Source of the DNA: a virus
Length of the DNA: 64,000 nucleotides
Reading direction: 5' to 3' (one strand)
IMG/VR virus record: IMGVR_UViG_3300028610_001991
The notes under the pieces: model-generated
What the model was told of the DNA's origin: nothing
Seen by the model: the letters and a program-made list of their open reading frames with translations, nothing else
Databases searched by the model: none
Part shown: one piece after another, positions 3 to 56,185 of the stretch
Layout of the letters: each line of letters begins with the position of its first letter
Position numbering within the stretch: position 1 is the first letter of the stretch
Program-made: the position numbers and the translations under genes

Positions 3-191
3 ATAATAGTTAGAAATATAAGTGATGGTATTGGTGTAGTAGTTTTCTACAGTATTTGAGTAGTAGTGGTGGTGCTCTATAGTGTTGGTGTAGTACTTAT
101 TTACTACCTGTGGTTCCAATGGTTCCATAGGATTGTTAGTGCAGCACACAAACAAGAGTAGTGATACTAATAATATAATTAACTTTTTCAT
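3..191 (-). CDS. Partial putative lipoprotein/secreted protein with Y/N/T-rich repeats (runs off window start)
   Basis: Manual translation MKKLIILLVSLLLFVCCTNNPMEPLEPQVVNKYYTNTIEHHHYYSNTVENYYTNTITY...; ATGA overlap with upstream gene; signal-peptide-like N-terminus ending in Cys. Confidence 0.6.
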   Translation of the reverse strand, partial: MKKLIILLVSLLLFVCCTNNPMEPLEPQVVNKYYTNTIEHHHYYSNTVENYYTNTITYISNYY

Positions 192-2559: not shown

Positions 2560-3193
2560 TTAATACCTCCATGTTGTTAATTAATACTCTTCTGAGCTTA
2601 CCGTAGAAATTGTGTATAGCCTCTTTACTACAGCTAAACTCTTTACTTAGTTCTGCTTGTGTGACAGCAGGGTTATTTTTTAAGACAGCTAGTGTCTTCT
2701 TAATCTTTATTTTCTGGTTTTTCCACCTCCTCTGATCAGTTATCAATATGTTCTCTAAAGTAGTTAGTATATAAGATAATTCAATTTTATTAAAAAACTT
2801 CACAAACAAATAGTTTGATCCAAAATAAGTATCAATGGTATTATTGAGCTCAGCAGGGTCTCTGTATTCAACATAATTTTTATCATTATGTAACTCCCTC
2901 AACTGGTCTCTACACTCACAGTAAGCTTTAACCTTTATACATCTTTTTATAAAATTGTATATCTCTTTGTTACTTTTCTGTGTATCCACTAGTTTTGTTA
3001 TAATAGATACAAAGTATTCAGAAACACTAGAAATAATAACGTGCCTATCCACATTAAAGGTATTATACTGCAGGCAGGCATAGTCAGCGTAATAGTTAAT
3101 AGAAGAGTAAAAGGCAGAGAATAATTTAGAGAAATACATCTCTTTTTTACTGCTCCTATAGTTATTTATAAGTTGTTTTAAATTGTGATACAC
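2531..3193 (-). CDS. sigma-70-family (ECF-like) sigma factor or related HTH regulator
   Basis: Helical region-2-like N-terminus (LINNY..F..LF..FY..I) and C-terminal HTH (TQAELSKEFSCSKEAIHNFYGKLRR). Confidence 0.55.
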   Translation of the reverse strand: MYHNLKQLINNYRSSKKEMYFSKLFSAFYSSINYYADYACLQYNTFNVDRHVIISSVSEYFVSIITKLVDTQKSNKEIYNFIKRCIKVKAYCECRDQLRELHNDKNYVEYRDPAELNNTIDTYFGSNYLFVKFFNKIELSYILTTLENILITDQRRWKNQKIKIKKTLAVLKNNPAVTQAELSKEFSCSKEAIHNFYGKLRRVLINNMEVLNVSDCISLY

Positions 3194-3209: not shown

Positions 3210-4541
3210 TTAATCTAATGCTACTACAGAACTCTCCATATCTTCATCAGATACGAAACCTTTCTTTTTCAAATACTCCACGCCCCTGGGAGTAATCTGT
3301 CTTCCTGTCTTTAATCTATGTATATAACCAAGTCTATATAGTTCAGGCTCAACGATCTTCTCTATATGTCGTGGATCCTCATACGTAAATTGCGCCATAC
3401 TGTTAAGGCCGACTGTTTGTGGGTATATACTAAAGAGATGCTTAAGAATCTTTATATCTGTTTTAGTATACAGTCCATTTTCATCTAAGTCAAGTACATC
3501 AAAAGCTTCCTCTGTAATACCTATATCAATCTCTTTTTTATTATTCTTTATAGCCACCTCTCTAATTGTCGTAGAACATAAGTTAATGGCTATCCTCGGC
3601 ACCCCTTTTGACCTTCGGGCTACTTCCAGCGCAGCTTCATCCGTTATGCTTTCAACAAAGTCTAGTTTAGATATACAGAACTTCACTACCTCCTTTAATT
3701 CTGAAATGGTATAGAGATCAAGAACAAGCTTGTACAAAAATCTATCGTAAACTGGATTAAGTAGACCCCCAGGGTCAGTAGTAGCTCCAATAATCGTAAT
3801 TGGAGTAAATCCAAACCTCTGAGAGTGGTTTCCTTGTTTTACAGTTATAGTTCGGTCCTCTAGGCATGTTAGCAAATTATTTTGAGCTCTTGGCGCTATG
3901 GTGTGGATTTCGTCTATGAATAAAATATTTACGCTATTACGTTTGGAGCATCTTCTTACTAGGTCTAATACATCCGTATCTTTTTGAATATTGTTACCGA
4001 TGGTAGAAATTACATCTACACCAAGCTCATTAGCAATGATCTGAACTAAGGTTGTCTTACCTGTACCGGCCGGTCCGTTAATAAGGATATGCCCTAAAGG
4101 CTGATTTCTGGCTTTAACTGAGTCTATTGCTATCCTGATCTTCTTAATCGAGTCAACCTGGCCAATAAAGTCATCAAATGTTAGGGGCCTTAACTCATTT
4201 ACTGGCTCTAGATTTTCTATTGTTTTTACCGTTCTTTTAGCTTCTCTTTCAGCTTTTTCCTTTTTGCCTTTTTCTCCATACTCAGTATTTTCTTTTCTTC
4301 TTTTGTCCATACAGCCTTTGCACACACTACCCCATCGGTTACGCTTATAAGTATTTAGTAAAGGGGCCATTATTACATCGTCATCTGATACTTCTCTACC
4401 ACATTCTTGACATTTTGTTGTATTTACTGTCACAGACGGGCCTTCTATTTTTGGATGAAGGAAAAGATCAGATGATACTTTTGATGCATCTTTATCGAAA
4501 CTATCACTAAAGGCATGCCCTGCAGTTTCGCCCATTTCCAT
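3210..4541 (-). CDS. ruvB: Holliday junction branch-migration ATPase RuvB with N-terminal Zn-finger extension
   Basis: LRPLTFDDFIGQ, Walker A GPAGTGKTT, Walker B LFIDEIH, IGATT..G.L..P..DRF, RSKGVPRIA, IE.IVEP.L...G.I.R...GR. Confidence 0.93.
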   Translation of the reverse strand: MEMGETAGHAFSDSFDKDASKVSSDLFLHPKIEGPSVTVNTTKCQECGREVSDDDVIMAPLLNTYKRNRWGSVCKGCMDKRRKENTEYGEKGKKEKAEREAKRTVKTIENLEPVNELRPLTFDDFIGQVDSIKKIRIAIDSVKARNQPLGHILINGPAGTGKTTLVQIIANELGVDVISTIGNNIQKDTDVLDLVRRCSKRNSVNILFIDEIHTIAPRAQNNLLTCLEDRTITVKQGNHSQRFGFTPITIIGATTDPGGLLNPVYDRFLYKLVLDLYTISELKEVVKFCISKLDFVESITDEAALEVARRSKGVPRIAINLCSTTIREVAIKNNKKEIDIGITEEAFDVLDLDENGLYTKTDIKILKHLFSIYPQTVGLNSMAQFTYEDPRHIEKIVEPELYRLGYIHRLKTGRQITPRGVEYLKKKGFVSDEDMESSVVALD

Positions 4542-30428: not shown

Positions 30429-30457
30429 TTGACAATACTGTAATTATGTTATATAAT
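30429..30457 (+). promoter_or_regulatory. consensus sigma70/sigmaA promoter
   Basis: TTGACA-17-TATAAT at start of plus-strand block. Confidence 0.9.
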
Positions 30458-35801: not shown

Positions 35802-36644
35802 ATGAAATATTTCTATAGTTCTGCCTCCCAAGGATTCTTTGGTGAAGGATACGCTTGGCACAAGCCAATCCTACTGACAGAGTCAATACGAAGGTTTATC
35901 AAGAGAGAACGGACTCTGACACAGGACGGATTCTCATTCTGTACAATACCCAAGTTCCCAGACTTTCCATTCGTATGTAAAACAATCACACTGAATCCCA
36001 AAAAAGGAACACCCTGGAGATTTACTCCTCCACCTATTACTATGATAACTCGTAGTTGTTGGAACAAGATCAGATTGCATAACAAAGGGTTTGATTGGTT
36101 TATTAAGGAGTATACGTGGAGATTTGCTTCTGGAGAGAAATGTGGAGATCTGTATAAACTTATTCCTTCATTGTATGGAACAACAGATGAACTTCAAAGA
36201 ATGATAGATGGCTTGGAAGAGTATCTTGATTATATGATTAAAATGGTAGAAATAAATGTATCTTGTCCCAACGTAAAAGAAATAGCTGAAATCAAACTTC
36301 CGGAGTCGCCATATCCATTATCATTAAAGCTACGATATGATGATGATCCACGTAGGTATGATCTTTCTAATGTTAAAAGAATAACTTTGAACTCTATACC
36401 TGCTAGTCGCTACATTAAAGGTATGCCTGGCGGGATCTCGGGTAAACTGGCACAGAGTAGAAACTGGGACTTCATACGAAAGTATCAGATACAGATTGCT
36501 CCGGAGATAGCCGGATGTTCAATTACCAAGATGGAGGATATTGAAACACTAAGCAAACCCCCATATAACTGTAAATCCATAGGATTAGGTAGTGTCTTAA
36601 TGATAAACCCATGGCTTGTACTAAAGTTGAAGGAGGAAAGATAG
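35802..36644 (+). CDS. pyrD: dihydroorotate dehydrogenase-like FMN TIM-barrel
   Basis: KTIT..P..G, N..L.N.G, EINVSCPNV, LSLKL, GGISGK, IAG..I...D, IGLGS. Confidence 0.72.
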   Translation: MKYFYSSASQGFFGEGYAWHKPILLTESIRRFIKRERTLTQDGFSFCTIPKFPDFPFVCKTITLNPKKGTPWRFTPPPITMITRSCWNKIRLHNKGFDWFIKEYTWRFASGEKCGDLYKLIPSLYGTTDELQRMIDGLEEYLDYMIKMVEINVSCPNVKEIAEIKLPESPYPLSLKLRYDDDPRRYDLSNVKRITLNSIPASRYIKGMPGGISGKLAQSRNWDFIRKYQIQIAPEIAGCSITKMEDIETLSKPPYNCKSIGLGSVLMINPWLVLKLKEER

Positions 36645-37077
36645 TGACATATTCGGATAGATGTAAATGTACTGAAAAGGCTGTTAGATATCTAGCACAT
36701 AATTATTGTGCTACGAAGCGTAATGCATGCAATGGGGGATAATAACGATAGTAAAATTAATCTCGAGACATTTAAATAAATTACTGAAGATATTTATGAG
36801 ATGTTAATTTATGGATGGACAGCTAAAGAGTTAGCCGGTAGTCAGAAATAAGGACATCTATTATGAAAGAAATAACAATAATAAAACCTAAGGAGGTTAC
36901 ATTATGCAAGAGTTTACAAAGAAGTGTCCTCGCTGTGGTGAAATAACAGTAAAGAGACAAAGTGATGCCATATACATATGTCATAACCCAAAGTGTGTAT
37001 GGGCTGGATGGATATGGAAATAAGAGAAAAGTAGAAATGCAGTACTAATAAAGTATATTTGATAGGAGGAAAATAAA

Positions 37078-39120: not shown

Positions 39121-39385
39121 TTTGATTAAACTAAACCTTTCATATTATAAGAGAGATTTGGACAAATGGGTTTAATTCTTATAGTTGGACTTGTATTAAA
39201 TTTACTAATAATAGGCACATTAATTAAATTAGCTCTAAAGCTAAGTAATAATAAAAAAGAAAGGCGATTTTAAAAATGTATCTTTTGTTAATTATTACTA
39301 TATTAGCTGTTTTTCTTTGTGTATCTATTTATAAAGACTATAGGAGAAGTAACCCTAAGACTACTGTTAAATTTAAAAGGAAAAA

Positions 39386-39775
39386 ATGAACTTACAACAA
39401 GCTTTAATTATATTTAAATTAAATCTAGAGCTATACTTTAAAGGTACAAAGTCTCCGAGCGAAGTAAATCTAAAATTAAAAAAGTTTAAAGAAGACGTTA
39501 AACAAACTTATAAACATCTGGCTCTTGCTGTGCATCCGGATATACATCCACAACTAGGGTCTGAAAGATTCAGAAAATTAACAGAAGCAAAAAAAGTGTT
39601 ACTAGAATTACATATTACAGAAAGAGTAAATGAACCAACAATAACTGTCAGTAATATTTTTAATAATAGTTTTACACGTACAGAAGGCGCACATAGTGAA
39701 AGACATGCTAGTTGGTATACCGACTACTCTGATATTATTGATAGTTTTAAATGGTACGGCACTACATATAAATAA
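39386..39775 (+). CDS. J-domain (DnaJ-like) protein
   Basis: YKHLALAVHPD...F.KL.EA..VL. Confidence 0.8.
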   Translation: MNLQQALIIFKLNLELYFKGTKSPSEVNLKLKKFKEDVKQTYKHLALAVHPDIHPQLGSERFRKLTEAKKVLLELHITERVNEPTITVSNIFNNSFTRTEGAHSERHASWYTDYSDIIDSFKWYGTTYK

Positions 39776-39786
39776 ATTGCATAGTG

Positions 39787-39815
39787 TTGCGTTATAGTGC
39801 TTTATAGGGTATAAT
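39787..39815 (+). promoter_or_regulatory. sigma70-type promoter
   Basis: TTGCGT-17-TATAAT. Confidence 0.7.
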
Positions 39816-39821
39816 ATATAG

Positions 39822-39945
39822 TATAGGAACCTACAGTCGTAGGTTTCTTCGCTTGTTTCCAGTCAGAGAATCTTTCCTCCCTGACAATGGTAAACTCAAG
39901 TATCCCACATAAGGCCGATTGTCCCCATCGGCCTTTCCTTTTTTA
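39822..39945 (+). ncRNA. candidate ~120-nt small regulatory RNA
   Basis: Between promoter and terminator; three hairpins; no RBS-ORF; loop carries TTTCCTCC. Confidence 0.6.
39911..39945 (+). terminator. intrinsic terminator
   Basis: AAGGCCGAT-loop-ATCGGCCTT then TCCTTTTTT. Confidence 0.8.
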
Positions 39946-40236
39946 ATAAATATTGTTTCTGTAATGTAAGTCTGTAGCCTGAGTAACAAAACTATAAATG
40001 TTTTTTAAAAGGTTAGCATCGTAGTAAGCATCTGGCTCTGGATGAAAACAAAACTGTCTAGAATCAGGGTGTCCACACCATCTCACTACACCAATTAAAT
40101 TCCTTTTAAGGGCTGTCAAGTAGCAACCCCATATAGGTGTTTCTCTATCTGCAGGACTTGAATGCTGCACAAACCTGATAATTTCATAATCAGTTTTCAA
40201 GCCTTCTGGTGGTAACTTTAATTCTTTCAACATCAT
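39943..40236 (-). CDS. hypothetical protein
   Basis: TAATG-coupled to nuclease gene. Confidence 0.7.
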   Translation of the reverse strand: MMLKELKLPPEGLKTDYEIIRFVQHSSPADRETPIWGCYLTALKRNLIGVVRWCGHPDSRQFCFHPEPDAYYDANLLKNIYSFVTQATDLHYRNNIY

Positions 40237-41003
40237 TAGCGTACCTCTCTTTTTTTAATATCTTCTTTTAATAGTAATTCAACCTCTTTATCCATATTTT
40301 TAACTGGCATAATTATATAAGGTGAATTTTTTGGAAAATGAATTAAGCACCCATCATGTAATTGTATATTGAAGTTAGATTTCAGTATGTTTTTATAAAA
40401 CCCTAACTGAAGAGAATATTTATTAAACTCACAGTTATCAAAACCAGACAGTACCCCTAACATACTATCAAAACGGTTATCTCGTTTGATATTTTTATTT
40501 GTTTTCCAATCGACAATAAAATAAATGCCTGTTTCTTTATTTCTACATAAACAATCTATTGTTCCAGCAACGTTATACTCTTTATGAGCTACCATAAGTT
40601 CAGTCTCTAGGATATCAACCTTATTTTTAAATGGATCCAGGAATTTATGAAATTGACTTATTCTATACCTAATATCTGTTACAGGTAGTGTAATCTTACT
40701 ATATTTCAAAAATAGATTAATATAGTAGTGTAACTCTTTACCTATTACAATTGAATAATCTTTTTTTATAAGCCAGTTTTCTTTTATTTCGTCTGTGCTT
40801 ATTCCTTCTTCATCAGCTTTTATCTTAGCCCAGTAATCAGTTTTAAATTCAGGGGTATATTTATTTAGTATATCACTAACAGCCTCGTATTGGTTTTCTC
40901 GTACATAGTAAGTATGCGTATCTGGAAGAAAATTAATATGTGGGTTTTTAAAATTCAATGTTTCCTTTTCCTTAGTATCATTGTATAATACAGGCACTTC
41001 CAT
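40236..41003 (-). CDS. PD-(D/E)XK nuclease (exonuclease-like)
   Basis: G.ELH..I, E..V, VAGTID, IVDWKT, YSLQL..Y. Confidence 0.88.
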   Translation of the reverse strand: MEVPVLYNDTKEKETLNFKNPHINFLPDTHTYYVRENQYEAVSDILNKYTPEFKTDYWAKIKADEEGISTDEIKENWLIKKDYSIVIGKELHYYINLFLKYSKITLPVTDIRYRISQFHKFLDPFKNKVDILETELMVAHKEYNVAGTIDCLCRNKETGIYFIVDWKTNKNIKRDNRFDSMLGVLSGFDNCEFNKYSLQLGFYKNILKSNFNIQLHDGCLIHFPKNSPYIIMPVKNMDKEVELLLKEDIKKREVR

Positions 41004-41130
41004 ACTAGCCTACCACCACACAGCTCCTAGAGTCTAGCCCTTGCACCATACATGTCTCCGACTGCCGATAATGTCCGTATGCAAATGCCGTTTGACCTTT
41101 TGAAGCACAGGGAGGCCCGTATCGGCCTTT

Positions 41131-46326: not shown

Positions 46327-46355
46327 TTGACAATTTAACATATGTAGTATATAAT
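46327..46355 (+). promoter_or_regulatory. consensus sigma70/sigmaA promoter
   Basis: TTGACA-17-TATAAT ahead of the structural block. Confidence 0.9.
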
Positions 46356-46593
46356 TAATTATAGGATTAAAAATGCCGGATCCGCGAGTAATTTTAAGTG
46401 ATATAGACTTACAAGGTAATAAAATACTTAATGCTGAAATTGAGCATTTAGAAAAATAAAAGAAAGTTAAAAATATTATAATGTTGAACGGGGTGCTAAC
46501 TTATGCTTTAGATGAGTTGCCTTTGAGTAGTGAGGCGGTTCAGTGTTTTATAATTTGTCTTATACCTGAAATAGTAGTAAAGAGGTTTATTGA

Positions 46594-54270: not shown

Positions 54271-54657
54271 ATGGTATTAGTTAGTGTAGGTCTTTTTTTA
54301 TTAGCGGTATCCCTGGTTTTTTCGATAGTACTTTTTTGTATGTCCTTGTCTAAGATAAAGATTGGAGGTACTATAAATGTAAACATACCTCAGAACGGAT
54401 ATCATAAATTTGCAGGTGTTGATCCTGCTCAAGGTAAAGATAGGTCTGAAATGACAATGGTCGAACATCCCGGACCAGATGGTAGTACGATTAGTTATCC
54501 TACAGCTGTTCCGGATATGAGTATACTTGATAGTGCTAAAGTTGAAACTAATATGGATTCGGAAACATTAATTATTAAAGGTAATACCAAGGGTAGCGAT
54601 ATTAAAAGTGCTGCAGCAGAACTTAAAAAAACTAAAAGTAGCAAGGGGTTAAAATGA
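54271..54657 (+). CDS. membrane-anchored hypothetical protein
   Basis: N-terminal TM; directly upstream of actin-like gene. Confidence 0.7.
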   Translation: MVLVSVGLFLLAVSLVFSIVLFCMSLSKIKIGGTINVNIPQNGYHKFAGVDPAQGKDRSEMTMVEHPGPDGSTISYPTAVPDMSILDSAKVETNMDSETLIIKGNTKGSDIKSAAAELKKTKSSKGLK

Positions 54658-55667
54658 AGGGTTTAGATATTGGGACAGCATTTATTGTTTGTATGGAGCA
54701 AGGTACTGAGGGGAACCAGGTAGTTCGTAGTGAGAGAGATGCTTTTTTTGAAGTACCTCCAGGTGAGTTTACAAAAAATATGCTTAACCAGTCTGGGGTT
54801 AATTATGTTAAGATGGACGACAAACTATATGTTATTGGTGATAAAGCTATGGAATTTGCAGAGGTGTTTGGTAGTGAAGCGCGTAGGCCACTTGCTCGTG
54901 GCTATATCAGCCCACGAGAAAAAGAAGCGCTTCCTATTTTAAATCAGATTATTAAGGCTGTAGCCGGTAAAATAAATGAAAAAAATGAGAAATTGATATT
55001 TTCGGTACCTGCGGATACTATTGATGATTTTCAGAGACAGAATGCCTTGGTATACCACAGAGAGAGTATAGCTACACTTATAAGACATATCGGGTTTGAG
55101 CCTATTGCACTTAATGAAGGTTTAGCGGTTATTTATTCTGAACTAAAAGATTATCAATTTAGCGGCCTAAGTTTAAGCTATGGAGCCGGAATGGTAAATT
55201 TTTGTGCGTCTTGGCTATCAGTGCCTATTCCTGAGCTTACTTTTGCAATAGGTAGGGGCGGTGACTGGGTAGATGAAAGTGCTGCCCGAGCTTTAGATGA
55301 GAGTATTGCAGTAGTTTGCGGGATGAAAGAATCTCCAAATGAATTTAATCTTAATGATAATTATGAATCTGGTATTCCTCAGGCATTAAGTATTTATTAT
55401 AAAGAACTTATCAGGTATACACTAATGACCTTAGAACGTGCATTTTATAAAATAAAAAGGCGGTTTCCTAAACCGATACCTATTGTTATAAGTGGAGGAA
55501 CTACATCTCCTCCTGGATTTTTGAACCTATTTACCGAGATGACAAGAAAATGTATCTTTTCTAATTTTAAAGGAGATAGGATAGAGATAGGGGATATAAT
55601 CCAGGCCGGTAATCCATTGTACTCTGTAGCTCAAGGTTGTATGATTAAGGGTGTGATAGATGGGTAA
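54654..55667 (+). CDS. actin-like ATPase (ParM/MreB/MamK superfamily)
   Basis: Phosphate-1 GLDIGT, VIGD.A, RPL..G, connect-1 NEGLA, YGAG..N, adenosine ISGGT, VA.G. Confidence 0.88.
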   Translation: MKGLDIGTAFIVCMEQGTEGNQVVRSERDAFFEVPPGEFTKNMLNQSGVNYVKMDDKLYVIGDKAMEFAEVFGSEARRPLARGYISPREKEALPILNQIIKAVAGKINEKNEKLIFSVPADTIDDFQRQNALVYHRESIATLIRHIGFEPIALNEGLAVIYSELKDYQFSGLSLSYGAGMVNFCASWLSVPIPELTFAIGRGGDWVDESAARALDESIAVVCGMKESPNEFNLNDNYESGIPQALSIYYKELIRYTLMTLERAFYKIKRRFPKPIPIVISGGTTSPPGFLNLFTEMTRKCIFSNFKGDRIEIGDIIQAGNPLYSVAQGCMIKGVIDG

Positions 55668-55947
55668 TAACGAAAACGAAATTGGTAGTTTAGGTGAATC
55701 TCAGATAACTAAGCAGGAAGAAAAAGTTATTATACCACAAAGGTTAGTAGGTAAGGATGTTGTTAACTGCCCTATAGCAGCTGCTGCAGAGTCAGTTGTA
55801 CTTGTAGATTTTTGTAAAAATATATGTTCTCATTTTGTTAAATTTATTGAAGATGAGAAATATGGTAATAGGGTTGAGTGTAAATACCCTAGATTTATAA
55901 AAGTTATTAATGTTTACGGAAAAGAAAAGTCAACTACCTTTACCTAA
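55660..55947 (+). CDS. small Cys/His protein coupled to the actin-like gene; last codons supplied by the IscB element
   Basis: CP...C...CSH...C; overlaps element left end at 55929. Confidence 0.7.
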   Translation: MGNNENEIGSLGESQITKQEEKVIIPQRLVGKDVVNCPIAAAAESVVLVDFCKNICSHFVKFIEDEKYGNRVECKYPRFIKVINVYGKEKSTTFT

Positions 55948-56185
55948 AGGGTAGGGGCTTGAGTAGTGATGCTCAACGCAAGGGTTGATTAGGGAGCTAA
56001 AAGGAAATTTTATGCAGAAGTTATTAGTAAAGTTAAAGAACACACCTACGGATGCTTCACAAGTCTGTAGCTCTGTAAATTCTGTATTAAACAAAGAGGG
56101 CACTCTTAGTGTGCAGAATAAAGTACTGGCTAATAACAATCCCGAAGTGAATCGAGTCTCTACAAACAAGACGCTCGTTAAAAGT
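55929..56185 (+). ncRNA. omegaRNA / HEARO scaffold
   Basis: GTCAACTACC...CTAAAGGG..GGGGCTTG...GGTTGA, ACCTACGGATGCTTCACAAGTCTGTAG, TTAAACA, typical HEARO landmarks upstream of PLMP. Confidence 0.85.

Follow-up and report, generated by a model that had tools for sequence, protein, structure and literature searches.

The 167-nt gap at positions 39776-39942 of the window, the 64,000-nt stretch of viral DNA analysed here, probably gives rise to a discrete RNA of about 120 nt, a reading to which we assign a probability of roughly 60%. A candidate promoter, a 5′ hairpin and a strong intrinsic terminator follow one another on the + strand with no ORF between them, which makes a discrete non-coding transcript of ~120 nt the most economical interpretation. 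The gap RNA would plausibly be the product of an orphan small RNA (sRNA) gene of a known kind; that it is a base-pairing sRNA acting through its C-rich motifs is a more tentative proposal, to which we give somewhat less than even odds. The initial annotation had described a small RNA that could silence genes through an exposed anti-Shine–Dalgarno (anti-SD) loop; our analysis supports the separate transcript of ~120 nt, but not the silencing mechanism.

Genome setting of the gap

The window corresponds to bases 27426-91425 of a 180,316-bp IMG/VR record (estimated completeness 96%, G+C content 35%), and positions are given in window numbering unless stated otherwise. The phage looks large and virulent. 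The motif GGAG is found in 37% of its upstream regions versus 4% of random positions, and GGAGG in 18% versus 1.4%. Its large terminase is closest to those of the Bacillus phages Slash and Staley (30% identity), and also matches one Microcystis phage and more distant Clostridium phages. Given this strong-SD usage and these terminase affinities, the host is likely to be one with Bacillota-like expression signals. Elsewhere in the window, a 337-aa protein (54654-55667, + strand) matches the Pfam family Volactin over its full length (PF25216, E 4.6e-70), and its gene lies directly upstream of an IscB element; at 55929-56157 (+ strand) we found a full-length match to the Rfam family HEARO (RF02033; 116.7 bits, E 2e-23), the ω-RNA of IscB/IS605-type elements.

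The gap is located at the junction of a + block of genes (30.4-39.8 kb) and a − block (39.9-45 kb) that converge on it. Its G+C content is 41%, compared with 29-38% in most other gaps of the phage. The features in the gap and on either side of it are the following.

39386-39775, + strand: gene for a 129-aa J-domain protein (Pfam DnaJ, E 1.5e-06), the final gene of the + block
39787-39792, + strand: −35-like hexamer TTGCGT, identical to TTGACA at 3/6 positions, with the conserved TTG kept
39810-39815, + strand: −10 hexamer TATAAT, separated from the −35-like hexamer by a 17-nt spacer
39825-39848, + strand: hairpin HP1, 10 bp with an AGUC loop, where the RNA is predicted to begin
39855-39895, + strand: interrupted hairpin HP2, GUUUCCA-GUCAG / CUGAC-UGGUAAAC, with the loop AGAAUCUUUCCUCC
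39896-39910, + strand: linker, predicted to be single-stranded, that contains UAUCCCACA, the second C-rich motif (unpaired probability ~1.0 for 39902-39910)
39911-39944, + strand: hairpin HP3, an intrinsic terminator found by a terminator scan and in our own census
39943-40236, − strand: convergent 97-aa gene taken from the ORF list, an ORFan and the final gene of the − block
40236-41003, − strand: gene for a PD-(D/E)XK exonuclease (PHROG 298, E 9e-28), which precedes the 97-aa gene

The + block has an early look, and the J-domain protein at its end carries an HPD motif; it is possibly a co-chaperone that recruits the host DnaK. A second GC-rich gap (41004-41130; 127 nt, 53% G+C) is found within the − block. 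It contains a terminator-like hairpin on the + strand (GGCC-CGTATC-GGCC followed by T5) and has ATCGGCCTTT in common with the terminator of the candidate sRNA. We rejected this gap as a second structured RNA, its fold having a z-score of ~0 against shuffles and no Rfam match.

A separate transcription unit or the 3′ end of the + block

The gap may alternatively be the plain 3′ untranslated end of the + block, in which case the promoter would be a chance match, HP1 and HP2 would be incidental or stabilizing, and HP3 would be the block terminator. We regard this as rather unlikely, and judge in the same way the role that HP3 would then have, namely keeping + transcription from running antisense into the − block. 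The promoter, the terminator and the two hairpins each bear on this question.

The hexamers TTGCGT and TATAAT would place the transcription start at about 39822-39826 on the + strand. The initial annotation called this promoter a good one; the motif with its 17-nt spacer is indeed present, but it is not of consensus quality, with a −35 hexamer at only 3/6, and a consensus promoter scan, which demands 4/6 at −35, does not list it. This imperfect −35 is what one would expect of a chance match at the end of the + block, and the genome-wide count points the same way: TTGnnn-16..18-TATAAT occurs at 15 sites on the two strands in our own motif census, a number at chance level, as ~21 would be expected from base composition (our own estimate, not computed by a tool). 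The distribution of these sites argues for the opposite, however. Intergenic DNA makes up 6.7% of the genome and contains 5-8 of the 15 motifs, whereas shuffled intergenic DNA yields 1.3 ± 1.2, which corresponds to a 4- to 6-fold enrichment; the majority of the copies in intergenic DNA are thus probably genuine promoters. It is only through its intergenic position that the candidate at 39787-39815 carries weight. By a rough estimate, uncomputed, the chance of such a promoter motif lying at most 200 nt upstream of any of the 5-6 terminators of the window is ~7%.

The phage uses canonical promoters. Perfect copies of TTGACA-17-TATAAT are located at 30429 and 46327, both of them points at which the GC skew becomes positive and + blocks start, and a third (136801 in window numbering) stands before the gene for a 223-aa protein (position 164376 of the genome). 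The promoter at 46327 belongs to a short promoter-to-terminator unit (46327-46560, + strand), in which it is accompanied by AGGA-N7-ATG and by a terminator-like hairpin ending near 46543; this unit probably encodes a very small protein.

The intrinsic terminator reported in the initial annotation was recovered: the HP3 hairpin (39911-39935) has a 9-bp stem (AAGGCCGAU/AUCGGCCUU) with five G–C pairs and is followed by UCC and then by a U6 run, which extends into the stop codon of the 97-aa gene on the opposite strand. HP3 is among the few clean terminators in the genome and is situated exactly at the block junction, as would be fitting for the terminator of the + block. Yet it lies 136-138 nt past the stop codon of the J-domain gene, an outlier compared with the three clean terminators of our census that have an upstream gene on the same strand, which follow the stop codon at distances of 8, 12 and 30 nt. 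This 136-nt distance from stop to terminator and the enrichment of intergenic promoter motifs together lend support to a separate gene.

HP1 is also difficult to reconcile with a simple 3′ end, as the predicted start falls only 0-4 nt before this very stable hairpin, which makes a poor terminator. Its U-tail score is 1.5-2.2, against a background mean of 1.04 and a 95th percentile of 2.7; with such a weak U-tail we rejected HP1 as a terminator of the + operon, a role that would explain it badly. In terms of its predicted fold, HP1 instead fits well with a protective 5′ stem-loop placed 0-4 nt past the predicted start. It contains a single G·U pair (G39827·U39846), which had been proposed to favour the + strand, and the calculated energies agree with this (−12.8 kcal mol−1, z −5.7, on the + strand versus −9.3 kcal mol−1, z −3.5, on the − strand).

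The stretch enclosed by promoter and terminator, about 120 nt, had also been described as free of any ORF led by a ribosome-binding site (RBS), which our search corroborated. Only two ORFs are present on the + strand of the RNA, each of 19 codons, starting with TTG at 39853 and with ATG at 39888, and neither is preceded by a usable SD. Counting these two and one ORF of 11 codons on the − strand, none of the small ORFs within the RNA combines an SD with a proper start codon, and all three were discarded.

Predicted fold and C-rich motifs

As a whole, a 126-nt stretch of the gap folds with −39.9 kcal mol−1 (z −5.5) on the + strand and with −44.3 kcal mol−1 (z −5.3) on the − strand. The strands differ at HP2. 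The long interrupted stem with its loop, as initially annotated, is present, but taken alone it is marginal on the + strand (−11.8 kcal mol−1, z −2.0, equalled by six of 200 shuffles) and more stable on the − strand (−17.2 kcal mol−1, z −3.6), because two A·C mismatches of the + strand become G·U pairs on the − strand. The z-score of only −2.0 is also in keeping with HP2 being an incidental structure in the 3′ end of the + block.

The HP2 loop AGAATCTTTCCTCC (39867-39880) is CU-rich and closed by GTCAG/CTGAC. It had been considered exposed, which is true of only part of it. Indeed, AUCUUUCC (39870-39877) is unpaired with a probability above 0.9, but two bases of CCUCC, U39878 and C39879, are paired with A39869 and G39868, respectively, in more than 90% of the ensemble, so that the fully open loop is reduced to AUCUUUCC.

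In total, three C-rich motifs lie in regions predicted to be single-stranded: UUUCCUCCC in the HP2 loop, UAUCCCACA in the linker and UGUCCCC in the terminator loop, the last being predicted to be unpaired. Two C-runs, CCC (39904-39906) and CCCC (39923-39926), are predicted to be unpaired, another one (CCC, 39879-39881) is partly paired, and no GGG run occurs in the RNA. The candidate thus shows the pattern of at least two single-stranded C-runs that defines the functional class of Bacillota C-rich sRNAs. The likeness to RNAIII/RsaE-type sRNAs put forward in the initial annotation was based on the HP2 loop, and the two further unpaired C-rich motifs make the resemblance to Bacillota C-rich sRNAs somewhat better than was stated there; the pairing with phage targets that would go with it does not exceed controls (see below). 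The significance of this layout is modest, given that three or more C-runs in the absence of a G-run are found in 1.2% of all windows on the + strand and in 5.7% of those on the − strand. The + strand of the adjoining − block is C-rich, and the excess of C over G in the gap matches the composition of that block; the C-richness of the candidate RNA may do no more than reflect this skew of the − block beside it.

Pairing with phage start regions

We scored the loop seed GAGAAUCUUUCCUCCC against 254 start regions of the phage, and used as controls 200 seeds in which CCUCC was kept and the remaining letters of the real seed were shuffled. The best duplex (−20.3 kcal mol−1) involves the gene for a 220-aa protein that starts at 3193 (− strand). 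This gene is just downstream of a gene for a RuvB-like AAA+ helicase (3210-4541, − strand), which matches RuvB_N with an E of 1.9e-34 as well as the RuvB lid and C-terminal domains. The second duplex (−19.1 kcal mol−1) involves the 223-aa gene at genome position 164376 (+ strand), the first gene after the third perfect promoter. The control seeds reach a mean best energy of −19.2 kcal mol−1 and 24.5% of them are as good as the real seed, while duplexes at −15 kcal mol−1 or below number six for the real seed and 11.9 on average for a control. With controls that do equally well or better, no specific phage target is supported, and across the 254 start regions we found no pairing beyond that of any CCUCC loop. 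The pairing scan proposed in the initial annotation, run here on phage start regions, thus ranked the loop no higher than its controls, as would also be the case for an RNA that is only the 3′ end of the + block. With control-level pairing, a partly sequestered loop and an HP2 that is more stable on the − strand, the idea of an exposed anti-SD loop that silences mRNAs finds no support here.

The longest contiguous match to the sRNA loop extends over 11 bp (GGAGGAAAGAU) in the SD region of an ORF starting at 36644. This ORF (36644-36742, + strand) has 32 codons, is Cys-rich, is preceded by GGAGG-N7-GTG and overlaps with its start the stop codon of a 280-aa gene (TAGTG).

Directly upstream of the J-domain gene, an AT-rich stretch with 23% G+C contains two neighbouring ORFs on the + strand, one of 35 codons (39166-39273) and one of 37 codons (39276-39389). 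Each encodes a hydrophobic helix followed by a basic tail and, from their sequences, the products look like small membrane peptides. As type I toxins under the control of the candidate RNA they were rejected, being on the same strand and pairing poorly with the loop (−9.0 and −6.1 kcal mol−1, against a genome average of −8.8 kcal mol−1). A type I antitoxin role, which had been evoked by analogy, is consequently unlikely, since these two hydrophobic ORFs are not good partners; the convergent 97-aa ORFan also looks soluble.

Search for relatives

At gathering scores, Rfam gives no match in the gap, and with E up to 10 it gives only noise (at most 16.6 bits, E at least 1.6); ARAGORN found no tRNA or tmRNA, and no repeated phage-specific motif was found in the gap. 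A blastn search of 50,697 phage records with a 1-kb query and with the RNA alone returned no homologue, nor did scans for exact patterns in IMG/VR, JGI metagenomes and GTDB genomes: each of the 59 loci that these scans retrieved had only a seed of 14-21 nt in common with the RNA, and the IMG/VR match was in a GC-rich coding region. Within the 180 kb of the phage, BLAST and a single-sequence covariance model (R1) found no paralogue, only the locus itself.

The neighbouring genes gave a similar picture. IMG/VR contained no close relatives of the exonuclease, the J-domain protein or the terminase, and JGI metagenomes none of the exonuclease. The nearest exonuclease is 38% identical and led to distant loci only. 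A profile scan retrieved 80 exonuclease loci at ~30% identity, at which neither the neighbouring genes of the phage locus nor a match to covariance model R1 were found. Among 5.8 billion proteins, a search with the 97-aa protein found only itself. Identical proteins are encoded on three contigs, of which the longest measures 187 kb.

Predicted antisense relationship with the − block

On the − strand of the gap, our scan detected no promoter or terminator site, and the tails of the three reverse hairpins score at or below background. With no terminator-like site on this strand, transcripts of the − block should cross the whole RNA gene, and the RNA would, given a − block that lacks its own terminator, necessarily be antisense to any read-through 3′ ends of the exonuclease/97-aa operon. 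It is plausible that this operon and the RNA form a cis-antisense pair through read-through, similar to that of phage λ OOP RNA, with a coding overlap restricted to the stop codon of the 97-aa gene.

A purely cis-acting RNA of the OOP kind would go further: it would pair over its full length with exonuclease/97-aa read-through transcripts, producing RNase III substrates, or act by transcriptional interference, and its C-rich loop would be incidental. Besides the missing − strand terminator, the U-run of the RNA, which abuts the stop codon of the 97-aa gene, and the better folding of HP2 on the − strand speak for such a function. We nevertheless hold it to be improbable: with a coding overlap of at most 2-3 nt, only an untranslated tail would be cut, and the three unpaired C-rich motifs would be left unexplained.

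Finally, it is highly improbable that the − strand is the meaningful one, either as a structured 3′ UTR of the − block or as the relic of a lost small gene with its SD GGGAGG (39876-39881, − strand) buried in a 9-bp stem: the stability of HP2 with its two G·U pairs and of the whole fold on this strand, together with a local excess of C over G matching that of the − block, would agree with it, but none of the start codons ATG, GTG and TTG is found after the SD-like run (an ORF there would have to use ATT or CTG and would span no more than 11 codons), HP1 and the U-run point to the + strand, and the gap is devoid of a promoter or terminator on the − strand.

Proposed mode of action

Our analysis shows which elements the sequence contains, how the RNA is predicted to fold and that it lacks an ORF; transcription, stability and any target of the candidate RNA we infer. 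In our preferred reading, the gap between the + and − blocks would contain an independent gene, with a non-coding RNA of ~120 nt as its product, at which a host σ70/σA-type RNA polymerase would initiate at about 39822-39826. The stable 5′ hairpin would be expected to hinder 5′-end-dependent decay in Bacillota-type hosts, and the RNA would end at the strong intrinsic terminator HP3, displaying its three C-rich single-stranded motifs between the stems. Most likely, these motifs would pair with G-rich SD regions of host or phage mRNAs; such pairing would block initiation and invite cleavage by RNase III, as for RsaE/RoxS and RNAIII. A still more ambitious scheme, in which the RNA would be a phage counterpart of RsaE/RoxS or RNAIII that broadly masks GGAGG for host shut-off or for an early-to-middle switch, and would in addition trim convergent read-through, is in our opinion a long shot.

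Comparison with known systems

Virulent phages, above all those of Gram-positive-type hosts, have yielded few known regulatory RNAs, and the phage RNAs covered in a 2025 review are mostly prophage RNAs of enterobacteria (PMC12197685). The c4 RNA of phages P1 and P7 pairs through its loops around the RBS of a phage mRNA and blocks its translation (PMC12197685). Like c4, the candidate would be a phage-encoded small RNA with loops able to pair at RBSs. However, c4 arises by processing of a longer transcript, and the sites complementary to it are defined and belong to its own operon, whereas no cognate site of the candidate stands out in the phage.

The OOP RNA of phage λ is short, has a promoter and a terminator to itself, is convergent to its neighbour gene and can form a duplex with the 3′ end of the latter (PMC5869508). 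OOP reaches into the coding sequence of cII at its 3′ end, whereas the candidate overlaps the 97-aa gene at the stop codon alone, and a duplex would need read-through.

The type I antitoxin RNAs of Bacillota prophages, such as SR4 for bsrG and RatA for txpA, are convergent to their toxin genes with overlapping 3′ ends and measure 100-200 nt. The candidate shares this convergent arrangement, albeit with a convergent gene that is a non-hydrophobic 97-aa ORFan. In Staphylococcus aureus, the hairpins of RNAIII have UCCC loops.

Bacillota sRNAs with C-rich regions (RsaE/RoxS, FsrA and CsfG) pair with G-rich SDs (PMC4409812). The candidate resembles the RsaE/RoxS class in its length of ~100-120 nt, in having a candidate promoter of its own, an intrinsic terminator and several C-rich motifs predicted to be single-stranded, and in its likely Bacillota-like host. 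It differs from this class in that it has no Rfam match, in its main motif, which is CCUCCC in U-rich flanks and not CCCC, and in its origin from a large, virulent-looking phage in which no target exceeds chance. The present value of such an orphan candidate is as a target for transcript mapping. If it were validated, a C-rich sRNA in a 180-kb phage would imply that SD masking is a host strategy which phages imitate. From our comparison, it is plausible that the candidate works like the Bacillota C-rich sRNAs without being a member of their family.
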